The notes beneath the pieces were generated by a model. That model worked only from the letters and a program-made list of their open reading frames with translations. It had not been told where the DNA came from and ran no database searches. A stretch of DNA of 64,000 nt from Candidatus Saccharimonadales bacterium (GTDB lineage Bacteria; Patescibacteriota; Saccharimonadia; Saccharimonadales; UBA10212), in NCBI GenBank assembly GCA_049521895.1, contig JBEKOJ010000001.1, positions 418,717 to 482,716 of the forward strand, in the 5' to 3' direction. Both the position numbers and the translations under genes were made by a program. Of this stretch, positions 101-61,179 are shown piece by piece (positions within the stretch are counted from its first letter, which is position 1; each line of letters starts with the position of its first letter).

Positions 101-715
101 TTAGGCTTTTCCGGCCCGCTTCTTGGCAGGTTTATAGTGCCGTACCAGTAGAGTACCAGTAATGGCGGCGTTCCCGATCAAAATATAGATTGGAAACACC
201 GCCGCAGTGTAGCTGAAGCTACCAAGAACAATAACGCCTACGGCTGCAACGAGGACACCTATCGCCCAGGCTAGTAAACTTTCGGTTTCCGGGTATCTCC
301 AGGCTTTGCGCAATGTATACCATGCAAAACAAGCATCACCTAACACGGCCAGGGAGGCATGAACGCTAACTGGGAAGAGATTCATAGCTCTAAGGATAAG
401 CAAAATGATACCGGCAATTAGAATAGGCAGGTCCGCCGGTTCAGGTTTGTCAGTTCCTTTGTGTCCGTATCCCGGAATCAGTGAAACTACAAAGACACTG
501 GCAGTGACAGCAACGAACGATGCAGCGATATAAAATCCGAGCCCAGCGCCTCCGCTGTAAGAGGCCCAAGCACCCACTGCGCCAATGGCCGTCCAACCTC
601 CCCAAGTAATTGGCTGTGGCCTAGTGCTACCCTTGAGGATTGTCCATAAATAATAGACGGCTCCAACAAGCTCTACGATAAGACCAACTGCTGTAAGCCA
701 GTCCTTCCAGACCAT
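101..715 (-). CDS. integral membrane protein, unknown function
   Basis: 204-aa ORF with hydrophobic helix-like segments throughout. It starts 2 nt after the pdaD stop on the same strand. Confidence 0.6.
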   Translation of the reverse strand: MVWKDWLTAVGLIVELVGAVYYLWTILKGSTRPQPITWGGWTAIGAVGAWASYSGGAGLGFYIAASFVAVTASVFVVSLIPGYGHKGTDKPEPADLPILIAGIILLILRAMNLFPVSVHASLAVLGDACFAWYTLRKAWRYPETESLLAWAIGVLVAAVGVIVLGSFSYTAAVFPIYILIGNAAITGTLLVRHYKPAKKRAGKA

Positions 716-1713: not shown

Positions 1714-3159
1714 ATGAAAATAGGGATTGTCGGTTGGGGCTTGGAGAGCCAGAGCGCATTCAGGTATTTTGGCCCTAGCCACGACTACCTGATAGTTAAC
1801 GAGTCAGCGCAGGATAATTTTCCGCCGGAGTCGAACAAGATCAAAGTCCGTTTCCTGGCCAATAAGGCTCCGATTGGAATTCCAGGACAAGTGCAGGATC
1901 TAAGCTATCTGAAGGGCATCGAAGAATGCGATAAGATCATTTATCAGCCCACGGCTTATTTTAACCTCCAGAAGGTTTTTGGCGACAACCCAGAATTTTG
2001 GAAGAAGGCCACTACTGTTTACGATATTTATTTTGAGAATACTCCAACCCAAAATATAATCGGCGTCACCGGCACCAAAGGCAAAGGCACCACATCTACG
2101 CTGATCGCCAAGATACTCGAGGCCAGCGGCAAAACCGTCCATCTTGGCGGCAATATCGGTACGCCCATCTTGGACTTGCTGCCCAGCATTAAAGCAAGTG
2201 ATTGGCTGGTATGGGAGCTGGCTAACTTCCAGCTAAAAGCTGCTTCTTATAGCCCGCATATTGCCGTCTGTTTAATGATTACTGAAGAACATCTGGACTG
2301 GCATCCGAGCATGGAGGATTACCTGGAGGCCAAAAGTAATCTCTTCCGACACCAAAAAGCCGAAGACGTTGCCATTTACTTTGCTAAAAATGAATACTCC
2401 AAAAAAATAGCCGGGTATTCACCCGGTAAAAAAATTCCTTACTACGAACCGCCAGGAGCATACATTCGCGAAGACGGTGTCATTGTGATTGACGAAACAG
2501 AGGTAATGAACAAGAATGAAGTTAAACTACTGGGCGAACATAATTTACAAAATATTTGTGCTGCCCTTACGGTTGTTTTTGAGGCGCAAGGGAGCGTTGA
2601 CCCCAGTAGAATAGTCCATGGCGGAATTCCACAGGGTCAATCCAGTGGAGCTTTAGCCCCGCTAAACGCCGTAGGCGGCTCCACGTGGATTGACAAAGCA
2701 AAAACAGTATTATCTAGCTTTAGCGGCTTAGAACATCGCTTGGAGTTCGTACGGGCCTTAGATGGCGTAAAATATTACAACGATTCTTTTGCCACCACCC
2801 CCGAGTCAGCAGTGGTCGCCCTAAAGACTTTTAGCGCACCAAAGGTTGTCATCTTGGGCGGATCAGACAAGGGTTTGTCCTTTGACCCGCTTGCCGATGA
2901 GGTTGCCAAAGGAAATGTTCGCAAAGCCGTAGCCATCGGGACTACAGCAGATAAAATAGTCAGTCTACTCAAAGAACACGGCTTCACGAATACCATAACT
3001 GGCTTGAATAAAATGACTGATATCGTGGCAGCTGCCCGCGAAGCTTCTCAGCCTGGCGACGTGGTATTACTAAGTACAGGCTGCGCCAGTTTTGGGCTGT
3101 TTAAGGATTATAAAGACCGCGGCGAACAGTTCAAGAAAGCTGTTCAAGCCCAGCAGTGA
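1714..3159 (+). CDS. murD: UDP-N-acetylmuramoylalanine--D-glutamate ligase
   Basis: 481 aa. Shows the Mur ligase P-loop GVTGTKGKGTT, GLEHRLEF and NDSFATTPES motifs in MurD order. Carries an extra ~31-aa segment (see 2597-2694). Confidence 0.9.
   Translation: MKIGIVGWGLESQSAFRYFGPSHDYLIVNESAQDNFPPESNKIKVRFLANKAPIGIPGQVQDLSYLKGIEECDKIIYQPTAYFNLQKVFGDNPEFWKKATTVYDIYFENTPTQNIIGVTGTKGKGTTSTLIAKILEASGKTVHLGGNIGTPILDLLPSIKASDWLVWELANFQLKAASYSPHIAVCLMITEEHLDWHPSMEDYLEAKSNLFRHQKAEDVAIYFAKNEYSKKIAGYSPGKKIPYYEPPGAYIREDGVIVIDETEVMNKNEVKLLGEHNLQNICAALTVVFEAQGSVDPSRIVHGGIPQGQSSGALAPLNAVGGSTWIDKAKTVLSSFSGLEHRLEFVRALDGVKYYNDSFATTPESAVVALKTFSAPKVVILGGSDKGLSFDPLADEVAKGNVRKAVAIGTTADKIVSLLKEHGFTNTITGLNKMTDIVAAAREASQPGDVVLLSTGCASFGLFKDYKDRGEQFKKAVQAQQ
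2597..2694 (+). other. in-frame 93-nt insertion inside murD containing a 16/17-nt inverted repeat, bracketed by TTGAC direct repeats
   Basis: TTGAC occurs at 2597-2601 and 2690-2694, exactly 93 nt apart. The arms are GTCAATCCAGTGGAGC (2636-2651) and GCTCCACGTGGATTGAC (2678-2694). The encoded ~31 aa lie where E. coli MurD, as I recall its sequence, has no residues. Confidence 0.5.
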
Positions 3160-3989: not shown

Positions 3990-4001
3990 TCTCTTCTTCT
4001 C

Positions 4002-5006
4002 TCAGGATTTGGTACGGGGCAAGTTGTCGGCTGCCCGGATGACGTTTTCGAACAAAGCGCAGACCGTCAGGGGGCCGACGCCGCCTTTTTCGGGAGTGAT
4101 TATTAGATCATCGCGTTGGTAAACTTCGGGGGCTAGATCACCGACGGTTTTGCCCGATTCGGAGGCCACGCCGGCATCGACCACCACGGCACCAGTTTTT
4201 ATCATGTCCGGATAAAGCACTGCCGGGCTACCAGTAGCTGTGATAATAACGTCGGCTTTCTTGGTATAGTCTGACAAATTTTTGACTTCGCGGCCGATAA
4301 CTTCAACCTCGTAGCCAGAGGCCTTAAGAATTTTTTCTAGCGGTGCGCCAACCAGCTTACCGCGGCCGACCAGTAAAATATGCTTGCCTGCCAGATCAAC
4401 CCCGTAGCCGGCTAGCAGCCACATAATCGCCATCGGCGTCGCCGGTTCAAACCAGGTTCCTCGCACCGTGACGTCCTGCCTTCTGGCGGAGCCAGAAGCA
4501 CCGTCGTCACTTAAGGTCCGCTGCGGCGTCAAAGACTGCGCTACTCCTTCACCGTATTTCATATACGACTCAGTCTGTTGCCCGTCTTTTCCTTGCACCG
4601 CACTCTTATGCGAGGCCCTGGATTTTGTCAAAGGTGGCCATGGTGCATCTGGGTCACCTAGGGCGTCCACGTCCTTTTGCGGTGCTACCAAATTAACTAT
4701 TTCATCTGTTTGGCTGGGATCTGTAAGCGGTAGTTGGACGATGATACTGTGTATGCTGTCGTCATTACTTAACTTGTTAAGTAATTTTGGCGCGTCTTTC
4801 TGTTGGAGCGTATGAATATCTACATCAATACCGACATCGGCGCCGTATTGCTTTTTAAGCCGGACGTAAGTATTGATAACCGGATCGTCTTTAACCTGTA
4901 CAATTGCCAGCTTGGGCCGTATGCCGCGCCCTCGCAGGCTGCGCACCTGTTTAGCGTGGCGCTCCTTGATAAAACCGGCCAGCTCTTGGCCATTAAGTAT
5001 TTTCAT
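4002..5006 (-). CDS. folD: bifunctional methylenetetrahydrofolate dehydrogenase/cyclohydrolase with a ~55-aa internal insertion
   Basis: 334 aa. Motifs IIVQLPL, KDVDA, PATP, GRGKLVGAPL and GGVGPLT are present. The spacer between KDVD and PxTP is ~72 aa versus ~17 in E. coli FolD as I recall it. Confidence 0.85.
   Translation of the reverse strand: MKILNGQELAGFIKERHAKQVRSLRGRGIRPKLAIVQVKDDPVINTYVRLKKQYGADVGIDVDIHTLQQKDAPKLLNKLSNDDSIHSIIVQLPLTDPSQTDEIVNLVAPQKDVDALGDPDAPWPPLTKSRASHKSAVQGKDGQQTESYMKYGEGVAQSLTPQRTLSDDGASGSARRQDVTVRGTWFEPATPMAIMWLLAGYGVDLAGKHILLVGRGKLVGAPLEKILKASGYEVEVIGREVKNLSDYTKKADVIITATGSPAVLYPDMIKTGAVVVDAGVASESGKTVGDLAPEVYQRDDLIITPEKGGVGPLTVCALFENVIRAADNLPRTKS
4764..4785. repeat. 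hairpin palindrome copy 1 (ATTACTTAAC-TT-GTTAAGTAAT), inside folD
   Basis: Read directly from the sequence: 10-2-10 dyad. It encodes LLNKLSN of FolD on the minus strand. Confidence 0.95.
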
Positions 5007-6493: not shown

Positions 6494-6838
6494 CTACAGT
6501 ATAGAAGATAGTCCAGTGATTCGTTTATAAGTTCTGGTTCGATGACAATTTGCGCAGACCAATTCACAATTGGCGATTTCTTCTTCTAGCTTTTCAATGC
6601 TGCAATTTTCTATTAGATCGTTTATTGTCGCCGTTTTCTTACCTACGTGATCGAAGTCCATAACGTAGTAAGGATAATTTTTACCGCAGTCGAGGCATGG
6701 GATAACTTCTTTTATGAGATTGATCAGTTCTCTAATGTCTTTTTTTCTTTTTGCTGCCTTTTCAATATAATACTGCCGATTAGCATAGTAATGTCGACGG
6801 ATTGCGGCCCGGCTGTCTTCTATATCTTTGTAGGCCAC
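6494..6838 (-). CDS. HNH endonuclease-like protein
   Basis: 114 aa. The pattern CLDCG...DFDHV...CANCHR matches a Cys4/His-Me finger. Confidence 0.7.
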   Translation of the reverse strand: MAYKDIEDSRAAIRRHYYANRQYYIEKAAKRKKDIRELINLIKEVIPCLDCGKNYPYYVMDFDHVGKKTATINDLIENCSIEKLEEEIANCELVCANCHRTRTYKRITGLSSIL

Positions 6839-12652: not shown

Positions 12653-12729
12653 TGCCCCGGTAGCTCAGCTGGATAGAGCAGGAGACTTCTAAGCTCAAGG
12701 CCGCAGGTTCGAATCCTGCCCGGGGTACC
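12653..12729 (+). tRNA. tRNA-Arg (anticodon TCT)
   Basis: Cloverleaf by eye. Loop is CTTCTAA and T-arm is GCAGG-TTCGAAT-CCTGC, with CCA encoded. The anticodon stem has only three Watson-Crick pairs (G27/A43 and A31/G39 are mismatched). Confidence 0.8.
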
Positions 12730-12734
12730 ACAAA

Positions 12735-12760
12735 AATGCCCAGCCTCGCGTTGGGCATTT
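12735..12760 (+). terminator. rho-independent terminator after tRNA-Arg(TCT)
   Basis: ATGCCCA-GCCTCGCGT-TGGGCAT stem-loop followed by TTTTT. Confidence 0.7.
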
Positions 12761-12813
12761 TTGTGGTTCTCTGGTAGATTCGGTTCTGCGGCTCGACAGC
12801 TTTAGCTGGCGAT

Positions 12814-12898
12814 AGCCGCAGGTTCGGTCATCCAGCTCGCCTGCAGGAGCTTGCTTCGAGAACGAGCGCAGATGTGCGCTCACCCTGCCCGGGGTACC
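12814..12898 (+). repeat. second, interrupted copy of the tRNA-Arg(TCT) 3' part (GCCGCAGGTTCG + 57-nt insert + CCTGCCCGGGGTACCA)
   Basis: The 12 nt before and the 16 nt after the insert are identical to tRNA positions 12703-12714 and 12718-12729... in order. The insert (12826-12882) replaces only the last three T-loop bases. Confidence 0.85.
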
Positions 12899-13003
12899 AA
12901 AGTTCCGTGCCTGCCAACCTTAAATACGCCTAGTTAGCATTAGAGATCGAGAAATCACAGACCGGTAGTGGGGTGATTTGGCCTCTTTTGTTAGTATGTA
13001 AGT

Positions 13004-13693
13004 ATGCCATCAGTTCAAGAAAAGCACTTTACGGCTTCCGCAACTGTCCGAGATGTTGTTATCGGCATGTCAGATGGCTTGACTGTACCTTTTGCTCTAG
13101 CTGCTGGTTTAACAGGTGCTATAGCTGCCTCCCATTTAATTATTACAGCCGGACTAGCAGAAATTGCCGCGGGCTCGATATCTATGGGTCTAGGCGGTTA
13201 TCTGGCTGCTAAAAGTGACGTTGAACATTATTGGAGAGAGCGCGGCCTCGAGGAACAGGAAGTTCAGGACACACCAAGGGTCGAAGCCCAAGAAGTGCAA
13301 GATATATTCAGACAATATGGCCTAAATAACCACCAGATTGAACCTATCATACGAGGCTTTCAGTCCAATCACAAAGCTTGGATTGATTTTATGATGGCTA
13401 ATGAGCTGGGGCTAGAGAAACCCAAACCCAAGCGTGTGCGTAATAGCGCTCTAACTATCGCCCTAGCCTATGTTACAGGCGGTATAGTACCGCTTTCGCC
13501 CTACTTTTTCATTAGTAATGCTAGACACGCTGTATTGCCTTCGATAGTCGTAACACTTATTGCTTTATTTTTGTTTGGTTTTTTCAAAGCTAAAGTTTCA
13601 GGCACAAAGGCTTGGCGAAGCGCCTGGCAGACAGTTCTGATCGGCGGAATTGCCGCAGCTGCGGCGTTCTTTATCGCTAGGGCTATATCTTAG
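13004..13693 (+). CDS. VIT1/CCC1-family iron/manganese transporter
   Basis: 229 aa. Has the N-terminal RDVVIGMSDGLTVPFALAAG motif and C-terminal TM helices typical of the VIT family. Confidence 0.75.
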   Translation: MPSVQEKHFTASATVRDVVIGMSDGLTVPFALAAGLTGAIAASHLIITAGLAEIAAGSISMGLGGYLAAKSDVEHYWRERGLEEQEVQDTPRVEAQEVQDIFRQYGLNNHQIEPIIRGFQSNHKAWIDFMMANELGLEKPKPKRVRNSALTIALAYVTGGIVPLSPYFFISNARHAVLPSIVVTLIALFLFGFFKAKVSGTKAWRSAWQTVLIGGIAAAAAFFIARAIS

Positions 13694-13704
13694 GCTGGTT
13701 ATAC

Positions 13705-14745
13705 CTAGCTTGTTAAGGTAAGAGCTATAAGGCCAAGAATGTATACGGCTAGAACTATTATCGAATCAACCCCCATACGAAAATAGATTCGCTTCGGTCG
13801 AACCACCAGACCAATTATGTAGATTCCCGTTAGTAGTACGCCTAGTGCTGCAAACCATATATCGCTAGTCGACGCATTCTTTAAGATAGAGTGGCCGGCA
13901 ATCAAATCACAGATTACAAACAGTGCCGGCATGAAGGCATTGCCACCGAAAATATCGCTCATAGCTAGTTTGTAGTCCCCCAGGTCTATGGAGCCGAACC
14001 CCGTACTTATGTTTGGCAAAGCACCAGCAAAAGCGATGAAAGTCGCGGCAAATAAACCTGTGCCAATTCCCCAGGCGTTCGCCAACTGCGTACCGCTAGA
14101 TTGCAATCCAACTCCGGCAACCAAAGTAGCTAGTGCAGCAACTCCAAAAATGAGGAAAATCTTCGAACTGGAGGCACTTTTCAAAGATGGATGGTTAATC
14201 ATAGCCCGTCTCTCATGGTGTTCTCGCCCGGGATGAGCATGAATTGCTTCGCTACGCCAGGGTAAACCCTTTCTGGCCCGAAATATTAACCATAGGCCAA
14301 AAATCCACAGTACAAAAATTAAAGCCGAGGACAGGCTTACTCGCGAATAAATAACCACTGGCGTTTTAATGGCAATAATCGAGGCAACAGCAACCAATAT
14401 GACAATTACTGCTTCCAGAACTAGGGTTAAAGAAGCGGCCGAGAACGTCAGCGGACTGTCAACTTTCATACGAGCATCAAGCAGGCTAATAACTACCGTC
14501 TGAATAGCAATTCCGCCCAGTAAAGTGCCAATGATTACATCGTAATGATGGGCCAGCGCCGCCGACACCACAATGGCGGTTTCTGGCAAACTGGTGGCTA
14601 TACCTAGAATTAACAGGCCGCCAAAAGCGCTCCCAAGCTTATATTTAGCATCTATGGCATCGGTAGTTCGTGTAAGCCATATTCCTGCCACCCAAATCAT
14701 TGCTGCAGAGATTAAAAACTCTAATATCAAACTCAGGTGCGGCAT
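13705..14745 (-). CDS. sodium/calcium exchanger (CaCA) family membrane protein
   Basis: 346 aa, polytopic. Contains the alpha-repeat motif GIATSLPE and a second repeat GALPN. Confidence 0.75.
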   Translation of the reverse strand: MPHLSLILEFLISAAMIWVAGIWLTRTTDAIDAKYKLGSAFGGLLILGIATSLPETAIVVSAALAHHYDVIIGTLLGGIAIQTVVISLLDARMKVDSPLTFSAASLTLVLEAVIVILVAVASIIAIKTPVVIYSRVSLSSALIFVLWIFGLWLIFRARKGLPWRSEAIHAHPGREHHERRAMINHPSLKSASSSKIFLIFGVAALATLVAGVGLQSSGTQLANAWGIGTGLFAATFIAFAGALPNISTGFGSIDLGDYKLAMSDIFGGNAFMPALFVICDLIAGHSILKNASTSDIWFAALGVLLTGIYIIGLVVRPKRIYFRMGVDSIIVLAVYILGLIALTLTS

Positions 14746-14852
14746 TCTGCAACCATCATATCATCAGCCGGATGGGTTCTAATATCGTTCAGCACCGATT
14801 GCCAACATTTACTGCAGACCCTAAACACAAATACTGTTAAACTTGTGTCAGA

Positions 14853-15152
14853 ATGTCCGTAGCTGAAGGGCTCAAGCCAAATTGGTGGGAAGTGCAAGCT
14901 TTGGGTATGGTGGAGCCAATCGAGATTGTGCTCGGTGCCATGGTATGTGATGGATGCAGGCAGGAGATAAGAGCACATAGGCTAAACCCCGAGTTTTTTG
15001 AGCTCGGACCGCCCTTGGAGTCTACGAGAATACTATGCGGCGCTAGCGAAAAAAAGGTTGCTCCGCTCCCGCATGGAACGAGTATTACCATTTATGATTT
15101 TTCAGTGCAACGTAAGCCCGACGAAGCTGTGGTGCCTCTAGGCGTACTCTGA
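14853..15152 (+). CDS. hypothetical protein
   Basis: 99-aa ORF in an otherwise empty interval with no recognisable motif. Its stop overlaps the tRNA-His promoter. Confidence 0.3.
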   Translation: MSVAEGLKPNWWEVQALGMVEPIEIVLGAMVCDGCRQEIRAHRLNPEFFELGPPLESTRILCGASEKKVAPLPHGTSITIYDFSVQRKPDEAVVPLGVL

Positions 15153-15170
15153 TATAATTACCTCTGTTCT
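15150..15170 (+). promoter_or_regulatory. tRNA promoter module TGATATAAT + TACCTCTGTT
   Basis: TATAAT lies at 15153-15158. It has the same architecture as the other tRNA promoters in the window. Confidence 0.6.
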
Positions 15171-15299
15171 TTCAGATTATTTTTCAAATTTTCAAAGCGG
15201 CGGTCTACTAACCGTTTGAAAAATTGAGAGGAGGAGCATAGCGCTAAGCCGAAGCTTTTGCGAAAAAGCAAAACGAGGCCGGCGCGCAAGCTCCGACGA
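15165..15299 (+). ncRNA. L-type structured leader, copy 1 (precedes tRNA-His)
   Basis: Contains an A/T-rich 12-bp hairpin (15185-15226), a purine block GAGAGGAGG and a closing helix GGAGC/GCTCC. It ends in CTCCGACGA directly at the tRNA 5' end. Homologous copies lie at 44612, 47933 and 55360. Confidence 0.55.
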
Positions 15300-15377
15300 G
15301 GCGAATGTAGCTCAGTTGGTTAGAGCGTCGGGTTGTGGTCCCGAAGGTCGTGGGTTCGAGACCCATCATTCGCCCCA
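15300..15377 (+). tRNA. tRNA-His (anticodon GTG) with encoded G-1
   Basis: Cloverleaf by eye. Loop is TTGTGGT, there is an extra 5' G opposite the discriminator C, and CCA is encoded. Confidence 0.9.
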
Positions 15378-16849: not shown

Positions 16850-16866
16850 CGTCCTAGCTAATTCCA

Positions 16867-17019
16867 GCCCCGCTAGAAATTTTGGCAATCAAGTGGCCAA
16901 AATTTAGCGGGGCCTTGCATTGCTACTCCTTTCCCCACAAAATCGTTAGCACAATTTTGCGGGGACCCCAAAAAACCGGCTCAATTCTAACCCCATTGCA
17001 TCTGAGCCATGCAATGGGG
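16867..17019 (+). repeat. three tandem CCCC...GGGG hairpins
   Basis: H1 spans 16867-16913 (about 19 bp with 1 bulge). H2 spans 16933-16964 (10 of 11 bp). H3 spans 16991-17019 (11 bp perfect). Confidence 0.8.
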
Positions 17020-17073
17020 ATCCCCAGAGAGAAGCTGTTTTACAAGAAAGGCATAAGCTGATATAAACCAAGC

Positions 17074-22766: not shown

Positions 22767-23230
22767 TGAATCCGGCGGTCTATTAATATCTGTAGTGTTT
22801 TAATCACACCCTCTATAATTGCCAAGATAGCGCCGCCAACTACCGCACCTGTATAGAATCGTTGAGATCTACCGTACGCTTTCAAAGAATCATCTACTAA
22901 ACCAGCGGGGTATATAAAAAACTTCTTACCTATAAAGTGGCGGCCTTTAATAGAAGTTACATATAAAGTCCAGTTACTACTAAGCCAATCTATGTATCCG
23001 TGTTCCTTAGATGCAACTAATATTGCGGCAACAGTACTCTCGCTTGGTTTTCTGAGTTTCCGAGATTTTATGTAGTCTTGAGTGAGGGCGAGCAATGCCT
23101 CGTTTTGTGCCTTGAAGGTTTGGGTGTGAGAAAGTATCTCGTACCTATTAGAATCTATGTACCTTACTAACTTGTACATATCTTTCATCTCTGCCATACG
23201 CTGAATTATACCTCTTGTCTGCGCAATCAT
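22763..23230 (-). CDS. hypothetical IS passenger protein with C-terminal hydrophobic helix
   Basis: 155 aa. Its start overlaps the transposase stop by 4 nt (ATGA), implying co-translation with the transposase. Confidence 0.55.
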   Translation of the reverse strand: MIAQTRGIIQRMAEMKDMYKLVRYIDSNRYEILSHTQTFKAQNEALLALTQDYIKSRKLRKPSESTVAAILVASKEHGYIDWLSSNWTLYVTSIKGRHFIGKKFFIYPAGLVDDSLKAYGRSQRFYTGAVVGGAILAIIEGVIKTLQILIDRRIH

Positions 23231-24111
23231 GTCTTACTCCGTGCAGATATGCTTACCTTGTCCATCAAAGCCCAAAACATAGGCTGAAAATCGTTTCTAT
23301 GGCTCTGCCTAAATGCATATTCGTTCACGTAGTTTTGTAAATGCTGAGAGCTAACGTGTCTATATACGCCCCGCATTCCACGCTTCATGTTACCCCAAAA
23401 GTTCTCAATGTTTTGGGTGTGAGTATCACCATCAACGTAATGCCTTTTGCCATGCTGGATAGTCTCATGGTAATAGCCTTTTTTATAAAGGCGTTTGTAG
23501 GAGCGGTGCTCATCAGAATAGATGGTAGACTCTCGCTGGATGTTCTCTTCAACTTCCCGTAATAACACTAACTCACCAGCAGACTTAACGTGCTTGGCTC
23601 TGACTACTCCGCCACGCTCGGCCATACCAAAGACCACAGGATTATCCTTCCTTGACTTATGAGGCTTACGAATGGTAGAGCGCTTTAGCGGGTCGGCGTG
23701 CATATAAGTTTCATCAATCTCAATTTCACCGTATAATCGCTCGCCATCATCACTCATCATAGATCTAATCTGGTGAAACATCCGCCACGCGGTTTTGTAA
23801 GTTACCCCTGTTTCACGCTCTAACTGTTTGGCTGAGATTCCGGCTCTAGTAGCGGCCATAATGAATATAGCCTCAAACCATATAGTTAAAGGTGTACTAG
23901 ATTTGTGGAAGATGGTATTTGCAGTAGGAGATGTAGAACCACCACAGTATTCGCAAGCATAAACTTTCATACTCCTTCGTTTGTGGTGAGGAGTTATCTT
24001 CTCACACTTCTTGCAAGTTATGCCCTCTGGGTACAGATATTCTTTCAACCATTCCAGACAAGCATCCTCATTTGGGAAATCTATCTTTAACTGTTGTCGT
24101 GTATATTTCAT
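23227..24111 (-). CDS. IS1595-family (ISXO2-like) DDE transposase
   Basis: 294 aa. Has an N-terminal Cys-rich zinc ribbon (CKKCE...CEYCG), an HTH (GISAKQLERETGVTYKTAWRM), EIDETY and DEHRSY acidic motifs. Confidence 0.9.
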   Translation of the reverse strand: MKYTRQQLKIDFPNEDACLEWLKEYLYPEGITCKKCEKITPHHKRRSMKVYACEYCGGSTSPTANTIFHKSSTPLTIWFEAIFIMAATRAGISAKQLERETGVTYKTAWRMFHQIRSMMSDDGERLYGEIEIDETYMHADPLKRSTIRKPHKSRKDNPVVFGMAERGGVVRAKHVKSAGELVLLREVEENIQRESTIYSDEHRSYKRLYKKGYYHETIQHGKRHYVDGDTHTQNIENFWGNMKRGMRGVYRHVSSQHLQNYVNEYAFRQSHRNDFQPMFWALMDKVSISARSKT

Positions 24112-47594: not shown

Positions 47595-47670
47595 AATTAA
47601 CAGGGGTGAGTTTTGATGTAAATCAAAAAGAGACTGGTTTTGGAACCAATCTCTATCTGTAATTATCACT

Positions 47671-47774
47671 TGGTAGCGGGGAGAGGACGGCGTCAGGGCT
47701 AACACGCCTGACTATATCCGCTCCTGCGTTACTCGGAATAAATTCCTGCGTGACTTAGTCGCTACACGAACCTC
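47671..47774 (-). repeat. second, interrupted copy of the tRNA-fMet 3' part (GAGGTTCG + 80-nt insert + CCTCTCCCCGCTACCA)
   Basis: The 16-nt 3' end is identical to the tRNA. The T-stem 5' strand is repeated at 47767-47774. The insert spans 47687-47766. Confidence 0.8.
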
Positions 47775-47823
47775 CCGCTCACTACGTTCGCTCAACGAGG
47801 TTCTCGCCCTTCTCCGAACCATG

Positions 47824-47857: not shown

Positions 47858-47932
47858 TGGTAGCGGGGAGAGGACTCGAACCTCTGACCTCGTGGTTATG
47901 AGCCACGCGAGCTGCCACTGCTCCACCCCGCG
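47858..47932 (-). tRNA. initiator tRNA-fMet (anticodon CAT)
   Basis: 5' CGCGGGGTGGAGCAG as in bacterial initiators. Position 1:72 is a C/U mismatch. CCA is encoded. Confidence 0.85.
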
Positions 47933-55272: not shown

Positions 55273-55359
55273 TATTCTGCCATCATGGCAGATATTTGTT
55301 CATAAATTAATTGCTTAAGGTTGATTTTTGGCCTAATAAAACAGATAATGTAAGGTGTT

Positions 55360-55478
55360 TCGTCGGAATCGAGGCACCGGCTTCCGTGAGCTTGTAGACC
55401 GTGCTCACTTTCAGCCTCGGCTCGCTTCCTCCTCTCAATTTCGCAAACGGTCGCTAGCGCCCCGATTCGCAAAATTGC
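55360..55478 (-). ncRNA. L-type structured element, copy 4 (orphan; lies in the comEC upstream region, same strand)
   Basis: On the minus strand it has an 11-bp hairpin with two G-U pairs (55437-55476), GAGAGGAGGAAGC and a closing helix. It ends in ATTCCGACGA, but no tRNA follows. The comEC start is 88 nt downstream. Confidence 0.5.
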
Positions 55479-55664
55479 AAGAGAAATTTTGGACGCCCAA
55501 ACTCACACACTTGGATGCAGTGCAAGACGCCGCCGAGGAACGCCCGCAGGTGTATTACAATACATTGAGGACGTACCGCCGGCGAGCAACGTAGCAGTGC
55601 GCCAAAAAGCCAGCAGGGTTTACGGCTTTGCCGGGAAGCAGTGTTGGCTGGTGTGTGAATTTGG

Positions 55665-55740
55665 GGGCCCATAGCTCAGTTGGTAGAGCAGAGGCCTTTT
55701 AAGCCTCGTGTCGCGGGTTCGAGACCCGCTGGGCCCTCCA
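55665..55740 (+). tRNA. tRNA-Lys (anticodon TTT)
   Basis: Cloverleaf by eye. Anticodon arm is GAGGC-CTTTTAA-GCCTC. CCA is encoded. Confidence 0.9.
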
Positions 55741-55748
55741 ATGAAAGT

Positions 55749-55775
55749 GCCCGGCCTTGCGCCGGGTATTTTCAT
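55749..55775 (+). terminator. rho-independent terminator after tRNA-Lys(TTT)
   Basis: CCCGGC-CTTGC-GCCGGG stem-loop followed by TATTTT. Confidence 0.65.
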
Positions 55776-55827
55776 TGGTTGTCTTAGTCGGTTTCGGTTC
55801 CGCGACCAAGACGCAAAGCGGATTGTA

Positions 55828-55916
55828 GTCGCGGGTTCGGTCATCCAGGTCGCGCGCAGTCCGCCTGAAGCGGACGAGCACGGCTGCAGATGTGCGCTGT
55901 CCCGCTGGGCCCTCCA
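55828..55916 (+). repeat. second, interrupted copy of the tRNA-Lys(TTT) 3' part (GTCGCGGGTTCG + 61-nt insert + CCCGCTGGGCCCTCCA)
   Basis: The flanks are identical to the tRNA. The insert (55840-55900) shares GTCATCCAGSTCGC and GCAGATGTGCGCT blocks with the insert at 12826-12882. Confidence 0.85.
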
Positions 55917-56021
55917 ACCATAAGCATTTTGACCTCTATAATTAACAGGCTACAATCTTATATAATTGCACACAACAAGCTAATTATTGACAACAGTTTA
56001 TAATTATGCTTATATGTGTGT

Positions 56022-56261
56022 ATGTCTCGGGAAAGAAATTCCACTTACTACAGGGATTATGCTGATATGGCACAAGAAATGATTAATGGCTTAAGCGATG
56101 GTGATATGCCACACGTAGGAACACTGCAATATATGTACGGCATTAGTGAAGCGGGTCGTGTGCAAGCAGAACTTGTTATGGACCATATTTTGGCTGACCC
56201 TCAACTAACAGAACAGTTTGACGCTACTGTTACTGCGTTTCAAGCAGAACAAGCGGCTTAA
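56022..56261 (+). CDS. hypothetical small acidic protein (island cassette 1)
   Basis: ORF in the A+T-rich cassette. TTGACA-N17-TTATAT (55987-56015) ends 6 nt before this ATG, so the mRNA may be leaderless. The ORF-track start is 56016. Confidence 0.4.
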   Translation: MSRERNSTYYRDYADMAQEMINGLSDGDMPHVGTLQYMYGISEAGRVQAELVMDHILADPQLTEQFDATVTAFQAEQAA

Positions 56262-56271
56262 TCTTGATAAT

Positions 56272-56499
56272 ATGGAAAGCAGGATTGGTTGGCTACATAA
56301 TACTTCAGGGGATGAAATACCTGTAGATCCGACATTAATTACAGATACATCTGGTGAATTAGTGGACGTAACGCCACAACAACTAGAGCAAATACTTGCC
56401 AATGACCCTGACTCTATTTTGCAGTTAATGGCTTGGGGTAGTTTTCAGAGCAGACAAGAAGCTGAGGCATTTCTTGCTGAGAGCGAGCAAGCCTCTTAA
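56272..56499 (+). CDS. hypothetical small acidic protein (island cassette 1)
   Basis: 75-aa ORF starting at MESRIG, 8 nt after the previous stop. No recognisable motif. Confidence 0.4.
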   Translation: MESRIGWLHNTSGDEIPVDPTLITDTSGELVDVTPQQLEQILANDPDSILQLMAWGSFQSRQEAEAFLAESEQAS

Positions 56500-56506
56500 T
56501 TTCGGC

Positions 56507-56534
56507 TGCTACAGCCTTCACGGTGGCCCTCCAC
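56507..56534 (+). repeat. 28-nt cassette-boundary repeat TGCTACAGCCTTCACGGTGGCCCTCCAC, copy 1
   Basis: Identical to 57660-57687. Its 3' half resembles the tRNA-Lys acceptor end (TGGGCCCTCCA). Confidence 0.9.
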
Positions 56535-56647
56535 AGATAAGACCTAGTGCATCTTCCAAACAGATACTCCCGCCCAGTAATTAATTGACAATCTAGGCAA
56601 GTGATAGTATTCTTAACTTTTTAAAGAGTCGAGGTAGTATTGTTACC

Positions 56648-57613
56648 ATGACAGAACGCAATCCGCAGTTATCGCAGAAGGTTATTGATCTCGCTTGGGA
56701 AGCTGCACAGGCCAGTGACCGAGCATTCGATGAGCGTGATCTAGCCAACTTTAAAATACTAAGTGATATGGCTGCAACTGTTATGCTATTGCCCACTACC
56801 GCGTTTAATTTTCAACGTGCTGAAATTCCATCTGCCCAAGTACCGGAAATTGACGTTGAAACAACTGAACGGCTGGAGGTTCTACCCACTGATTACCGTA
56901 AATTAGTACTAAACCGCTATACCGAAAAAAATGAAGTAGTAGGTACCCAAATTAATGCCAACACCCTGCCTGAACACTATCGGCTGCCGGGGTTAAGTGA
57001 ATTTATAGAAGAGGTCATAGCTTTAGCTCCGGTCTATGAAGCATTTATCAAAAATAGCTGGGAGCCAGAAGTAGTTTTTGTGCCCAACAACCTAAGCCTC
57101 GAGCAGTGGGACAGCCTGCTCATGGGCCATACATTGCCAAATGGCCGTAAGTCCAAGGGCCTATCACGTGCCTGGAGAGTTAATGAAGTTTATGACCAAG
57201 GAACCGACGCTAACCCATGGTATTTAGCTATTGTATGTAGTACTGAAAGACCCCCGCTTACTAATGTAAGTCCTGACGGTGAACACGGCTCTCGAGCCAA
57301 TAAAACCATTAGAATATTGTCAGAACTGCCAAACATAGCTGACGTCTCATCTCCAGAAGCCATTATTAATCAAGCTAGTCCATCAGAAGAAATGTATTGT
57401 GCTTTTCAGCTTGCTCGCTTAGAGCGTGGTGAGCAACCCGTAGACACCGAGACCTGGACCATTGGCAAAGAAAATATTAGCCTGGGATCTCTGTTCTTTA
57501 GCTTTCCTATATACAAGCGGCAGGTTTTCTCTTTCTTTAGCGATCGTGCTCACCGCCTTGAAGGTAGCGGTGTCCGCCCCTCAGCTAACGGTAAAGATCT
57601 AGTTCTCGGCTAG
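56648..57613 (+). CDS. hypothetical protein (island cassette 2)
   Basis: 321-aa ORF with no motif I recognise. It is preceded by TAATTAATTGACAA, a promoter-like sequence homologous to that of cassette 1. Confidence 0.55.
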   Translation: MTERNPQLSQKVIDLAWEAAQASDRAFDERDLANFKILSDMAATVMLLPTTAFNFQRAEIPSAQVPEIDVETTERLEVLPTDYRKLVLNRYTEKNEVVGTQINANTLPEHYRLPGLSEFIEEVIALAPVYEAFIKNSWEPEVVFVPNNLSLEQWDSLLMGHTLPNGRKSKGLSRAWRVNEVYDQGTDANPWYLAIVCSTERPPLTNVSPDGEHGSRANKTIRILSELPNIADVSSPEAIINQASPSEEMYCAFQLARLERGEQPVDTETWTIGKENISLGSLFFSFPIYKRQVFSFFSDRAHRLEGSGVRPSANGKDLVLG

Positions 57614-57659
57614 GGACATAATTACTAATATGTAGGTGTTGGCTACCCTGAATTGTAGT

Positions 57660-57687
57660 TGCTACAGCCTTCACGGTGGCCCTCCAC
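57660..57687 (+). repeat. 28-nt cassette-boundary repeat, copy 2
   Basis: Identical to 56507-56534. It is followed by the terminator hairpin at 57692-57716. Confidence 0.9.
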
Positions 57688-57691
57688 GGAA

Positions 57692-57716
57692 AGCTCATCA
57701 TTTGGATGAGTTTTTA
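57692..57716. terminator. terminator hairpin between the island and the convergent membrane-protein gene
   Basis: CTCATC-ATTTG-GATGAG stem-loop followed by TTTTT. Confidence 0.65.
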
Positions 57717-60531: not shown

Positions 60532-61179
60532 TTGACAATACCGAGCACATGTTATAGTGATATCGTGAACGATTTAGAACGTGTCCGAGCCGATTCTGGC
60601 TTTGATAAGATGACTAGCTTGCCAGACCGGGTAGCTTTCTTGACTCAACTGGAAACCCTGGCAAGTGAAAGGCCTGGCGATTTCGGCGTCCTCATTGCGG
60701 ATCTTGATAGGTTAAAGGTAATTAATGACGCGGGGGGGCATGCAGCTGGAAATTTTATGATAATAAGTGCGGGTAATATTATATCATCGAGTATCCGTGT
60801 TGAGTCTGAAGGTACAGGAGTAGACCCAGAGAGAAGAGCAAAAATCAGCGGGCCCGACGCAGTAGCAGCTAGGATTCATGGTGATGAGTTTGGCATCATA
60901 CTGCCCGGGGTAAATAGTCCGGACATCTTGGAAGTCATCCGACAGCGCGTGGAACAAGATTTAGAAAGAGGAGGAATAGATGCCTCTATCGACGGCCGAG
61001 TACATATGCAGGGAGAAGCTGTTGATACGCTAGTCCATGAGGCAGACCTGCTAATGTTAAAAAGGAAAAACGAAAGAAAAAAAGCAGTCTTTGAAGCACT
61101 TCCTAAGCATAAGCGTGTCGCTGCCAGATTGGGTTTATTAATGCTGCATTATGCGGGAATGAATCCGCCTCGCCAATAA
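60532..61179 (+). CDS. GGDEF-domain protein with altered active-site motif (HGDEF)
   Basis: Carries DLDRLKVINDAGGHAAGN and RIHGDEFGIILPG. It has no sensor domain and an apparent TTG start. Confidence 0.6.
   Translation: MTIPSTCYSDIVNDLERVRADSGFDKMTSLPDRVAFLTQLETLASERPGDFGVLIADLDRLKVINDAGGHAAGNFMIISAGNIISSSIRVESEGTGVDPERRAKISGPDAVAARIHGDEFGIILPGVNSPDILEVIRQRVEQDLERGGIDASIDGRVHMQGEAVDTLVHEADLLMLKRKNERKKAVFEALPKHKRVAARLGLLMLHYAGMNPPRQ

Follow-up and report, generated by a model that had tools for sequence, protein, structure and literature searches.

A possible family of structured RNA elements built around partial tRNA copies in Saccharimonadales tRNA transcription units

Classically, an att site is recognised where the 3' end of an intact tRNA gene recurs downstream as a direct repeat. 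Parts of tRNAs are put to other uses in Y RNA/YrlA and tmRNA, which combine a tRNA-mimicking part with a protein-binding or functional module, and in engineered tRNA scaffolds, whose cargo sits within the anticodon stem of a complete tRNA, whereas theta (minimal HDV-like) ribozymes adjoin phage tRNA genes. In TnpB/Cas12-type guides, a scaffold is followed by a 3' segment identical to the target. Here we analyse a stretch of 64,000 nucleotides from a Candidatus Saccharimonadales bacterium (contig JBEKOJ010000001.1; hereafter the window, with positions counted from its first letter) that contains three modules, located after tRNA-Arg, tRNA-Lys and the initiator tRNA-Met (iMet). To our knowledge, there is no close precedent for a cargo hairpin enclosed by a clamp whose two sides copy the 3' third of a neighbouring tRNA, one in antisense and the other exactly in sense, and a limited search of the full-text literature found no description of such a module.

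In each module, the order 3' of the tRNA is a terminator hairpin, an antisense arm (tRNA positions ~45-76), an apical hairpin, and a sense arm in which positions 45-57 and 59/61-76 are copied exactly and which is split at T-loop position 58 by an insert containing what we call the rod (Table 1). The exact copies comprise 12+16 nt in the Arg module, 12+16 nt in the Lys module and 8+18 nt in the iMet module. After tRNA-Arg, copy b corresponds to the variable loop, the T-stem 5' strand and TTCG, and copy c to the T-stem 3' strand, the acceptor 3' strand, A73 and CCA; the insert between them holds the helix GTCATC/GATG-TGC, the rod and the block GCAGATGTGCGCT. The initial annotation had reported tRNA-Arg, its terminator and a split second copy of the 3' end with a 57-nt insert replacing only T-loop positions 58-60, all of which is confirmed in the sequence, except that its copy coordinates were one base low. 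It had also stated that the insert behind tRNA-Lys begins and ends alike, and both blocks are indeed exact in the two units, namely GGTTCGGTCATCCAGSTCGC (2 matches in the window vs. 0 expected) and GCAGATGTGCGCT (12868-12880 and 55886-55898). Its statement that no matching 5' strand is present does not hold, given that the sense copies are preceded by a diverged copy, in antisense, of the entire 3' third. The unit also extends beyond what that annotation described, and the third unit, after the initiator tRNA-Met, was not listed there.

Table 1. Positions of the three modules, their parent tRNAs and associated features in the window
Feature	Position	Strand	Source
tRNA-Arg(TCT), parent gene of the copied 3' third	12654..12730	+	ARAGORN; Rfam tRNA 62.2 bits
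Terminator-like hairpin 3' of tRNA-Arg (A-tract, GC stem, T-tract)	12731..12763	+	read from sequence
Arg antisense arm, diverged reverse complement of tRNA positions 45-76, TGGT-TCTCTGGTA-GATTCGGTTCTGCGGC	12764..12792	+	
Arg apical hairpin, closing the long stem, TCGACAGC TTTA GCTGGCGATA	12793..12814	+	folds, sequence comparison
Arg sense copy b, GCCGCAGGTTCG, exact copy of tRNA positions 45-57	12815..12826	+	
Arg 57-nt insert in place of T-loop positions 58-60	12827..12883	+	
Arg rod core (P2a, bulged C, P2b, RCA/GA internal loop, P3, tetraloop, bulged A)	12835..12867	+	
Arg sense copy c, CCTGCCCGGGGTACCA, exact copy of tRNA positions 61-76	12884..12899	+	
Terminator-like hairpin and T-run, 3' of the Arg module and 5' of the VIT1 gene	12970..12995	+	terminator scan
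VIT1 gene, downstream of the Arg module	13004-13693		Pfam
tRNA-Lys promoter	55321-55349		
Structured 5' leader, tRNA-Lys promoter to tRNA	55490..55664	+	
tRNA-Lys(TTT), parent of the second module	55665..55740	+	ARAGORN, Rfam
Hairpin after tRNA-Lys, equivalent of the Arg terminator	55738-55778		terminator scan
Lys module, same subtype as Arg	55776..55916	+	
Lys antisense arm	55776-55806	+	
Lys apical hairpin	55807-55827	+	
Lys copy b	55828-55839	+	
Lys insert (rod 55848-55885)	55840-55900	+	
Lys copy c	55901-55916	+	
Initiator tRNA-Met, parent of the third module	47858-47932	-	
Hairpin after tRNA-iMet, equivalent of the Arg terminator	47849-47830		terminator scan
iMet module, third in the window	47671..47822 (about)	-	
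iMet part AGCGGGAGGTTCG, after the antisense arm	47779-47767	-	
iMet rod, then an extra hairpin	47757-47725	-	
iMet 18-nt exact copy of tRNA positions 59-76	47688-47671	-	
Intrinsic terminator directly 3' of the iMet module	47629..47654	-	terminator scan

The modules share with the att repeats of integrative elements a downstream copy of the tRNA 3' end, including CCA, and flanks that vary among genomes. The att core, however, is uninterrupted, whereas in the module 57-85 nt of conserved, covarying sequence interrupt the block at position 58; the module further differs from att scars by its antisense copy, its spacing (only ~84 nt from tRNA-Arg to the sense copy) and its lack of an integrase. 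As in Y RNA/YrlA and tmRNA, a tRNA-like part (T-arm, acceptor-like helix, NCCA) is joined to a separate, putatively functional part, but the tRNA part of the module is an exact copy of its neighbour that differs per locus, is paired to an antisense arm in cis rather than forming a D/T elbow, and has T-loop A58 replaced. There was no Rfam match to Y RNA or tmRNA, ARAGORN found no tmRNA, and neither rsr/rtcB neighbours nor a trans-translation context is present in the window. Engineered tRNA scaffolds, 3' external transcribed spacer RNAs and mascRNA likewise have a cargo RNA that is expressed, folded and protected by virtue of its place in or on a tRNA transcription unit; unlike in the engineered scaffolds, the cargo of the module lies in the T-loop of a partial tRNA copy, behind a terminator, and its clamp is an inverted repeat of a third of the tRNA. 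T-box RNAs resemble the module in being matched to one tRNA and in a UGG near a terminator that can pair with the tRNA CCA, but the module lacks a specifier codon and Stem I, lies 3' of the tRNA gene and has no Rfam T-box match. Moreover, the UGGN of the modules does not covary with the discriminator base (UGGU occurs with U in Lys, and UGGA and UGGC with A in Gly and L043), and the genes downstream of the modules, VIT1 and hypothetical proteins, are not genes of amino-acid metabolism. Theta ribozymes are similar as small structured RNAs beside tRNA sequences, but the helix order of the module does not fit a nested double pseudoknot, and Rfam ribozyme models gave no match at E up to 10.

To compare the antisense arms with their tRNAs, we aligned each arm to the reverse complement of the cognate tRNA third and to shuffles. 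The resulting z values were 6.7 for Arg, 6.2 for Lys, 5.7 for L038, and 4.5 and 3.7 for iMet modules (4.5 for that of the window), and none of 2000 shuffles reached the alignment of the Arg arm; in L002, the Pro and Gly arms resemble their own tRNAs only weakly (z = 1.3-1.4). The Arg antisense arm and sense copies form an end-to-end duplex (-32.5 kcal/mol) for which the cognate pairing is the best, and cognate pairing was best or tied in five of eight modules. Several departures of the Arg arm from a perfect complement are, by our own comparison, C-to-T changes, which would retain G-U pairing in the RNA; the Lys arm also holds changes that break pairs. The copies in the modules track the sequence of their own tRNA: the iMet tRNA of L038 has the T-stem GCAGG/CCTGC and that of the window and of L043 AGAGG/CCTCT, and the modules match in each case. 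A T-stem and an acceptor-like helix can form in the module and NCCA is present, although A58 is replaced, the D-arm is absent and the antisense pairing covers the same nucleotides. The exact identity of the sense copies would not be needed for a mere clamp, and points either to gene conversion or to a function in which the tRNA sequence itself is put to use.

The rod, which is not derived from the tRNA, can be aligned across 11 instances from 5 tRNA types and 6 genomes, in which 90.9 % of the pairs are standard. Changes on both sides were observed in 8 of the 10 pairs (24 double-change cells), none of 500 shuffles reached any of these measures, and slid controls were 16-41 % paired. Eleven cells of the alignment are G-U or U-G and, read from the opposite strand, would turn into A-C mismatches, indicating selection on one strand. 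The rod thus behaves as expected in a generic test for structured RNA under purifying selection, with double changes exceeding those of shuffled and slid controls, and strand-specifically so. Its bulged C, RCA/GA internal loop and bulged A are invariant. With rod model R2, the Arg rod scores 39.2 bits (E = 4e-8). Known examples number only about a dozen. A near-identical counterpart of the Arg apical hairpin is found by sequence comparison in the iMet module of L038.

In the iMet module of the window, AGCGGGAGGTTCG is the complement of the acceptor 3' strand fused directly to the T-stem 5' strand. The initial annotation had offered a tRNA-minihelix-like RNA as a fallback to an att scar, and this direct fusion in iMet modules brings the fallback closer to the evidence. 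Separately, a 13-nt T-arm fragment lies 75 nt past this module. The same rod also occurs in the 5' leader of tRNA-Lys (55538-55576), where it is not part of a sense/antisense/sense arrangement; located between the promoter and the tRNA, it should be transcribed. This leader rod is also present in the relative L044, and compensatory changes distinguish the closing stem of the leader in the window from that in L044.

The stem of the hairpin after tRNA-Arg, as read from the sequence, can be extended by pairing of the tRNA CCA with TGG at 12764-12766; with the equivalent CCA/TGG extension, the stem after tRNA-Lys reaches 18 pairs. Our simple terminator scan did not list the Arg hairpin, in our reading probably because its 9-nt loop exceeds the limit of the scan. 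Terminators following the module itself are present for the iMet, Arg and L043 modules, and the L043 terminator resembles that of its tRNA. Between the tRNA terminator and the module, a scan of the window found no sigma-70-like promoter.

Several other identities were considered and rejected. ARAGORN and the Rfam tRNA model called the 12 true tRNAs of the window alone, with no cloverleaf called in the module, which argues against a tRNA gene or pseudogene; the sole tRNA match in an E-value scan of 12700-12960 came from the true tRNA-Arg gene itself, in the form of its truncated 3' end (12700-12727). Hammerhead, HDV-like, twister, pistol and hatchet ribozymes disagree with the module in core sequence or helix order, and Rfam gave no match to them; a K-turn would require a helix register that conflicts with the covarying P3 pairs. 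More generally, Rfam 15 gave no non-tRNA match at the gathering threshold in the window, L001, L002 and L005, and at E up to 10 nothing past the tRNAs (the best sub-threshold matches being noise). A small ORF starting from the AUG in GCAGATGTGC is conserved in neither length nor sequence. A minus-strand primer-binding site is at odds with the G-U pairs, by which the structure belongs to the plus strand, and with the lack of a reverse transcriptase in the window. A TnpB/IscB omega RNA or an IS110 bridge RNA would sit at an element's end beside its effector gene, and no such gene adjoins the modules in the DNA that could be read.

Among relatives, modules occur after Pro, Gly, Lys and initiator Met tRNAs. 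An exact-pattern scan of 185,579 species genomes returned 12 matches, of which 3 were true relatives and the others chance matches in high-GC coding sequence; of 23 matches in metagenomes, 2 were true, 1 of these being a duplicate. Across the collections searched for the blocks, as the initial annotation had suggested, they are present solely in other Saccharibacteria/Patescibacteria assemblies, and in the DNA that could be read no integrase lies beside them. The unit is fixed in the species (7 independent metagenome contigs, at least 99.85 % identical), and the same locus is carried by populations from peat. The set of module-bearing tRNAs varies among genomes, and so does the DNA 3' of tRNA-Lys and tRNA-Arg. 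The tRNA-Lys module is absent in 7 more distant relatives, in which the neighbourhoods are rearranged. Modules after iMet, in turn, are found in all three genomes examined (the window, L038 and L043), whose ComEC proteins are 65-77 % identical. The modules in L001 and L005 and an orphan module in L043 have no adjacent cognate tRNA.

With a confidence that stops somewhat short of the halfway mark, we favour the reading that the 170-nt unit is a member of a hitherto undescribed family of structured RNA elements that lie within Saccharimonadales tRNA transcription units. On the tRNA strand, the arms would pair into a long imperfect helix from which the rod branches off, forming a three-way junction. 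The element RNA would be made by read-through from the tRNA promoter and would end in the tRNA's own NCCA, several copies having a terminator of their own; since the intervening hairpin resembles a competent terminator, the module may be poorly transcribed. The tRNA-derived arms might serve as a clamp and a tRNA-like end by which the RNA is folded, trimmed and stabilised, and the rod might be the working part, most likely one to which a protein or other partner binds. The arms were probably born of fold-back or tandem copying around the terminator, and their match to the tRNA may have been maintained through selection or local gene conversion. If real, such elements would add a previously undescribed family of structured non-coding RNAs to the candidate phyla radiation, where RNA biology is almost unexplored, with a design in which cargo is inserted at one T-loop position and the copies are re-matched whenever the tRNA differs. 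They would also bear on how small RNAs use tRNA promoters and tRNA-processing enzymes, on what keeps short sequences identical to a neighbouring gene, and on how integration scars are told from functional RNAs among partial tRNA copies, which matters for genome-island finders. The rod motif offers a concrete handle in the search for a candidate binding partner.

Two alternatives place the origin of the modules in DNA processes. The unit could be a neutral by-product of replication, in which template switching and tandem duplication at the terminator palindrome left a functionless pseudo-tRNA fragment that is gene-converted. The succession of sense copy, terminator palindrome, antisense copy, hairpin and sense copy is the expected output of hairpin-templated copying, and both the similarity of the two L043 terminators and the differing sets of module-bearing tRNAs are in line with it. 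We nevertheless consider this account improbable, as the rod is not tRNA-derived and yet is conserved with compensatory changes across tRNA types, genomes and a 5' leader, the iMet modules persist among the three genomes at the above divergence of ComEC, and the unit is fixed within the species; the C-to-T changes that would keep G-U pairing in the Arg arm also speak against it, tempered by the pairing-breaking changes in the Lys arm. The att-scar reading of the initial annotation is most unlikely. Here, a tRNA-targeting integrative element would have left the unit behind as a scar or miniature remnant, with the copy as the displaced original tRNA end (attR) and the blocks as arm-type protein-binding sites of a common integrase family. 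This reading would account for the direct repeat downstream of an intact tRNA, the variable DNA 3' of tRNA-Lys and tRNA-Arg and the T-arm fragment beyond the iMet module, but not for a repeat broken at position 58 by a covarying hairpin, the ~84 nt between tRNA and copy, or an antisense copy, which is not a product of att recombination. The G-U pairs, as a mark of one-strand selection, the fixation of the unit and the occurrence of iMet modules in all three genomes argue against it as well. A Pfam search of ~70 ORFs in the 64 kb found no integrase, reverse transcriptase, serine recombinase or other site-specific recombinase (the sole transposase found, IS1595, is 10 kb from the module), and exact searches of a viral collection with type-specific blocks found no module, one block giving 0 matches and a second only chance matches in coding sequence.

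In a cis switch or quality-control device, which we regard as unlikely, the antisense arm would have two possible pairing partners, namely the upstream tRNA in its 3' third and the module's sense arm, acting as a decoy. Pairing with the tRNA would form a giant hairpin tipped by the terminator, and the choice would report or control how read-through pre-tRNA is folded, processed or decays, the rod recruiting the acting factor. The same 30 nt occur three times in succession, in sense, antisense and again sense orientation, the terminator stem already extends from the tRNA CCA to the TGG that opens the antisense arm, RNase Y is encoded in the window, and the exact identity of the decoy would be explained because decoy and tRNA compete for one partner. 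However, invasion of a folded tRNA is unlikely, the segments would be present only in read-through transcripts, orphan modules have no adjacent tRNA, the leader rod occurs outside the triple arrangement, and the varied downstream genes suggest no regulatory logic. It is distinctly unlikely that the modules are a new kind of tRNA-programmed genetic element, in which a conserved RNA scaffold (rod and junction blocks) gains, by templated copying, antisense and sense copies of the 3' third of the adjacent tRNA gene, for spread between tRNA transcription units or for guiding a candidate protein to DNA or RNA with that tRNA end; a possible target could be the attP of elements integrating into that tRNA gene. 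A guide-like RNA, whose scaffold of arms, rod and conserved junction blocks would present the 16-19-nt 3' tail that is identical to the tRNA, alone or together with the 12-nt copy, to direct a candidate protein to the tRNA gene itself or to such an attP, has the layout of the TnpB/Cas12 type in its favour, together with the retargeting of modules to different tRNAs behind an unchanged scaffold and the variability of the DNA 3' of tRNA-Lys and tRNA-Arg. It is very unlikely all the same: no TnpB, IscB, Cas, IS110 or other candidate effector is present in the window or beside any module that could be read, Rfam HEARO and other guide-RNA families gave no match, the supposed guide is already paired to the antisense arm, and the target would be the cell's own tRNA gene.

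Three minor observations concern sequences outside the modules. A 321-aa protein is encoded downstream of the Lys module, but its homologues are not syntenic and are uninformative. Scanned with a 17-mer from the rod tip, the viral collection yielded a similar hairpin tip in a phage tRNA array, where it lies between tRNA-Ser genes (L047, L049), and also one in L046; as these tips score only 13-15 bits with the rod model, we excluded them from membership. An annotated phage collection gave no match. Finally, a 12-nt match to the tRNA-Arg end occurs at 60901-60912 within a GGDEF gene, and we take it as chance.

Within the window, 12 tRNA genes are set among housekeeping genes, in a locus also found on a 769-kb contig, and three of them are followed by a module containing sense copies of the 3' third of the tRNA and an insert. 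Judged by homologues of its ComEC, the window belongs to Candidatus Saccharimonadales. The initial annotation had described the Arg module as a split copy of the 3' end of tRNA-Arg(TCT), a layout that is exact apart from coordinates one base low, and it had correctly noted that the Lys insert has the begin and end blocks of the Arg insert: both conserved blocks are exact between the two modules (2 matches of a 20-mer vs. 0 expected by chance). In the module of the initiator tRNA-Met (iMet), the tRNA 3' end is copied exactly over 18 nt, and the insert is different yet alignable. The first sense copy ends at G57 of the T-loop in every case, and the second starts at position 58, 59 or 61; therefore, the insert takes the place of A58 and sometimes also of positions 59-60.

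Modules and rods in the window
Feature	Position	Strand	Remark
tRNA-Arg(TCT)	12654-12730		
Hairpin 3' of tRNA-Arg(TCT)	12731-12763		A-tract/GC-hairpin/T-tract
Arg module, first sense copy	12815-12826		GCCGCAGGTTCG, tRNA positions 45-57
Arg module, insert	12827-12883		57 nt
Arg module, second sense copy	12884-12899		CCTGCCCGGGGTACCA, tRNA positions 61-76
tRNA-Lys(TTT) module	55828-55839, 55840-55900, 55901-55916		Layout as in Arg
Module 3' of initiator tRNA-Met	47822-47671	minus	
Rod	12835-12867		Covariance model
Rod	47725-47757	minus	Covariance model
Rod	55848-55885		Covariance model
Rod	55538-55576		Covariance model

Directly 3' of the tRNA terminator lies a diverged reverse complement of the tRNA 3' third (TGGT-TCTCTGGTA-GATTCGGTTCTGCGGC in the Arg module vs. 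TGGTACCCCGGGCAGGATTCGAACCTGCGGC for the perfect complement). Alignments of this antisense arm compared to shuffles gave z = 6.7 for Arg, z = 6.2 for Lys and z = 4.5 for iMet, and two relatives had z = 5.7 and 3.7 for their iMet modules; by the same comparison, the match was weak in the Pro and Gly modules of the Saccharibacteria assembly L002. Antisense arm and joined sense copies pair end to end (−32.5, −30.9, −27.6, −24.8 and −22.6 kcal/mol), with the cognate partner best or tied in 5 of 8 cases, and the initial annotation was therefore wrong in stating that a complementary strand is absent. The predicted overall fold is one long, imperfect hairpin composed of the antisense arm, a small apical hairpin and the sense arm, from which the insert branches off. 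The iMet module (hairpin at 47654-47629), the Arg module (12970-12985) and the module of the relative L043 are each followed by a terminator-like hairpin, which in L043 resembles the terminator of the tRNA itself.

The rod, a hairpin inside the insert, follows a scheme common to all subtypes (P2a, bulged C, P2b, RCA, P3, loop, P3', GA, P2b', bulged A, P2a'). We aligned 11 rods from Arg, Lys, Pro, Gly and initiator Met modules (six genomes), one orphan module and one 5' leader; standard pairs occupy 90.9 % of the cells, and 8 of the 10 pairs show both-sided changes (24 cells), with P2b variants UC/GA, GC/GC, CC/GG and AC/GU, and P3 variants GGAG/CUCC, GAAG/CUUC, GGAA/UUCC, GUCCGC/GCGGAC and GGUGUAU/AUACAUU. 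None of 500 shuffles matched the real rods in any of five measures, and sliding the partners by 1-3 columns reduced pairing to 16-41 %. Given that the G-U pairs of the rod are A-C mismatches on the opposite strand, the structure is on the strand of the tRNA. A covariance model of the rod detected four rods in the window.

The promoter of tRNA-Lys(TTT) (55321-55349) is followed by about 305 nt (from 55360 to 55664) before the tRNA, whereas in most relatives the same promoter lies about 20 nt from the tRNA and the long leader is missing. The last 175 nt of the leader (55490-55664) form a closed structured domain enclosing the same rod that the 3' modules have, which is also present in the relative L044 (about 1150-1328), with several compensatory changes in the closing stem (CCCAAACUCACACAC/GUGUGUGAAUUUGGG in the window vs. 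CCCAAAUUUACGCA/UGCGUAAAUUUGGG in L044). Because it is located between promoter and tRNA, this domain should be transcribed, and the position argues for the rod as an RNA motif. A second repeated leader motif, a 12-bp hairpin (CAAATTTTCAAA ... TTTGAAAATTTG) followed by the Shine-Dalgarno-like GAGAGGAGGA(G/A)GC, lies upstream of tRNA-Met genes and once inverted, toward ComEC; its positions are 48070-47990 (minus strand, in the iMet leader) and about 55400-55470 (within the Lys leader, in reverse orientation) in the window, and about 17633 (minus strand) in L038. The iMet leader spans about 145 nt in the window vs. 15 nt in L038.

Exact-pattern scans of the collection, together with a survey of the sequences flanking tRNA genes of relatives, identified at least about a dozen members, and the set of module-bearing tRNAs varies by genome. 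Modules lie 3' of tRNA-Pro(TGG) and tRNA-Gly(TCC) in L002, a Lys module lies at a contig end in L032, and iMet modules are present in L038 and L043; the Lys module is missing in seven relatives. Arg(TCT) of L002 has no module, and tRNA-His follows 27 nt downstream (L002 2233-2413), whereas in the window (12900-15300) the module, a VIT1 transporter, a Na/Ca-exchanger-like gene and a 99-aa ORF separate these tRNAs, with a second VIT-family gene 3' of tRNA-His. The iMet module was found in 3 of the 3 genomes where initiator tRNA-Met could be examined (ComEC proteins 65-77 % identical). In L038, the T-stem of the iMet tRNA is GCAGG/CCTGC and the module has GTCGCAGGTTCG and CTGCCCCCGCT; in the window and L043, tRNA and module alike have AGAGG/CCTCT. 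Judging from these sequences, the module copies track the local tRNA. Within the species, the Lys unit is present in seven independent metagenome contigs (99.85-100 % identity), without presence/absence polymorphism among them, and the iMet unit is 100 % identical in the 4 of 4 that reach the locus.

Orphan or degenerate copies, with the cognate tRNA not adjacent, occur in L001, L005 and L043. The Lys-type orphan of L043 (about 4000-4130, minus strand; 39.8 bits with the rod model) lies 5 kb from tRNA-Lys and contains a 13-nt copy of the tRNA-Lys end, GTCCCACTGGGCC; in place of a tRNA, a short sequence ending in CCACCTCCA and a terminator precede it. In the Patescibacteria assemblies L001 (670-806) and L005 (2671-2790, minus strand), the module is preceded by about 120-135 nt of sequence other than a tRNA, closing with GGGAGAGCCA or GGGGGAGCCA and then a terminator. 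This stretch, for which Rfam gave no match, may be another CCA-ending small RNA.

The initial annotation had likened the unit to an att scar. A classical att scar conflicts with several observations: the core is interrupted, the spacing is 84 nt, an antisense copy is present, the covariation is strand-specific, and the unit is fixed within the species, with an iMet module in each of the three genomes examined. Pfam scans of about 70 window ORFs detected no integrase, serine recombinase, reverse transcriptase or RNA-guided nuclease; the sole mobile-element gene in the window encodes an IS1595-family transposase (23227-24111, minus strand). The DNA 3' of tRNA-Lys and of tRNA-Arg differs among genomes, and no far-end repeat bounding an island was found. 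A small HNH-motif ORF (6494-6838, minus strand) adjoins tRNA-Arg(TCG). The 13-nt AGGTTCGAGTCCT (47595-47583, minus strand), located 75 nt past the CCA of the iMet module and just beyond the module terminator, has the sequence of the T-arm of initiator tRNA-Met; it may be a former att core or what is left of a decayed tRNA. A 12-nt exact match to the tRNA-Arg(TCT) 3' end, CTGCCCGGGGTA (60901-60912), inside a GGDEF-domain gene is probably due to chance.

The sequences establish a three-part anatomy, a match to the cognate tRNA, strand-specific rod covariation, trailing terminators, conservation and a rod in a leader located between promoter and tRNA. Roughly and by our judgement, the module is probably a selected RNA-level element in the broad sense that also covers the switch and guide readings given below. 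Because no promoter was found between the tRNA terminator and the module, transcription would occur as read-through starting at the strong tRNA promoter. Antisense arm and sense arm would together fold into a clamp, the RNA would end in a tRNA-like NCCA, and the rod, whose unpaired nucleotides are invariant, would present the functional surface, with a protein as its probable partner. Copying around the palindrome of the terminator, both by fold-back and in tandem, may have produced the arms. To this specific reading, a clamp-plus-rod RNA, we assign a likelihood slightly short of even. The exact identity of the sense copies exceeds what a clamp requires; it would be maintained by short-tract conversion, with the tRNA 115 nt upstream as the source, or else the tRNA sequence itself would be used. 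On the latter basis, the module could instead act in cis as a switch controlling the tRNA precursor, which we consider unlikely, or serve as a guide-like RNA, which appears more doubtful still.

The module matches no curated RNA family, nor was it recognized as either a tRNA or a pseudogene. Its nearest systems are tRNA-like modular RNAs (YrlA/Y RNA, tmRNA), tRNA-scaffolded or tRNA-linked small RNAs, and att repeats; none of these is known to combine an inverted-plus-direct clamp of tRNA thirds with an insertion at T-loop position 58. We would rate the module as belonging with tRNA-derived structured RNA; the chance that it is new as a category (for example, a templated tRNA-programmed element or guide) is small.

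Other elements were observed near tRNA genes. An intergenic element shared by the window (16850-17070, after tRNA-Pro(CGG)) and L002 (about 2420-2550, minus strand, after the Gly module) holds TTTGGCAATCAAGTGGCCAAA with complementary GC-rich arms on either side, and looks like a third family of structured repeats that flank tRNA genes. The tRNA-Lys/ComEC region is a rearrangement hotspot: comparison of window positions 55273-57713 with L038, L039 and L040 shows that some relatives have tRNA-Lys and its promoter flipped with respect to ComEC, and tRNA-Lys is followed by a sortase and an ice-binding-like gene in L040 vs. two or three small ORFs and a 321-aa orphan protein in the window. Rod-like hairpins also occur in the viral contigs L047 (2584-2665, minus strand), L049 (about 215-300, minus strand) and L046 (3303-3370). 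Any likeness of these to the rod is confined to the tip (GACGC..CAGGAATTTATTCCGAGCA), which matches the iMet-type rod tip at about 26 of 31 positions, and the rod model gives them just 13-15 bits; two of them sit between tRNA-Ser genes of a 15-tRNA array.
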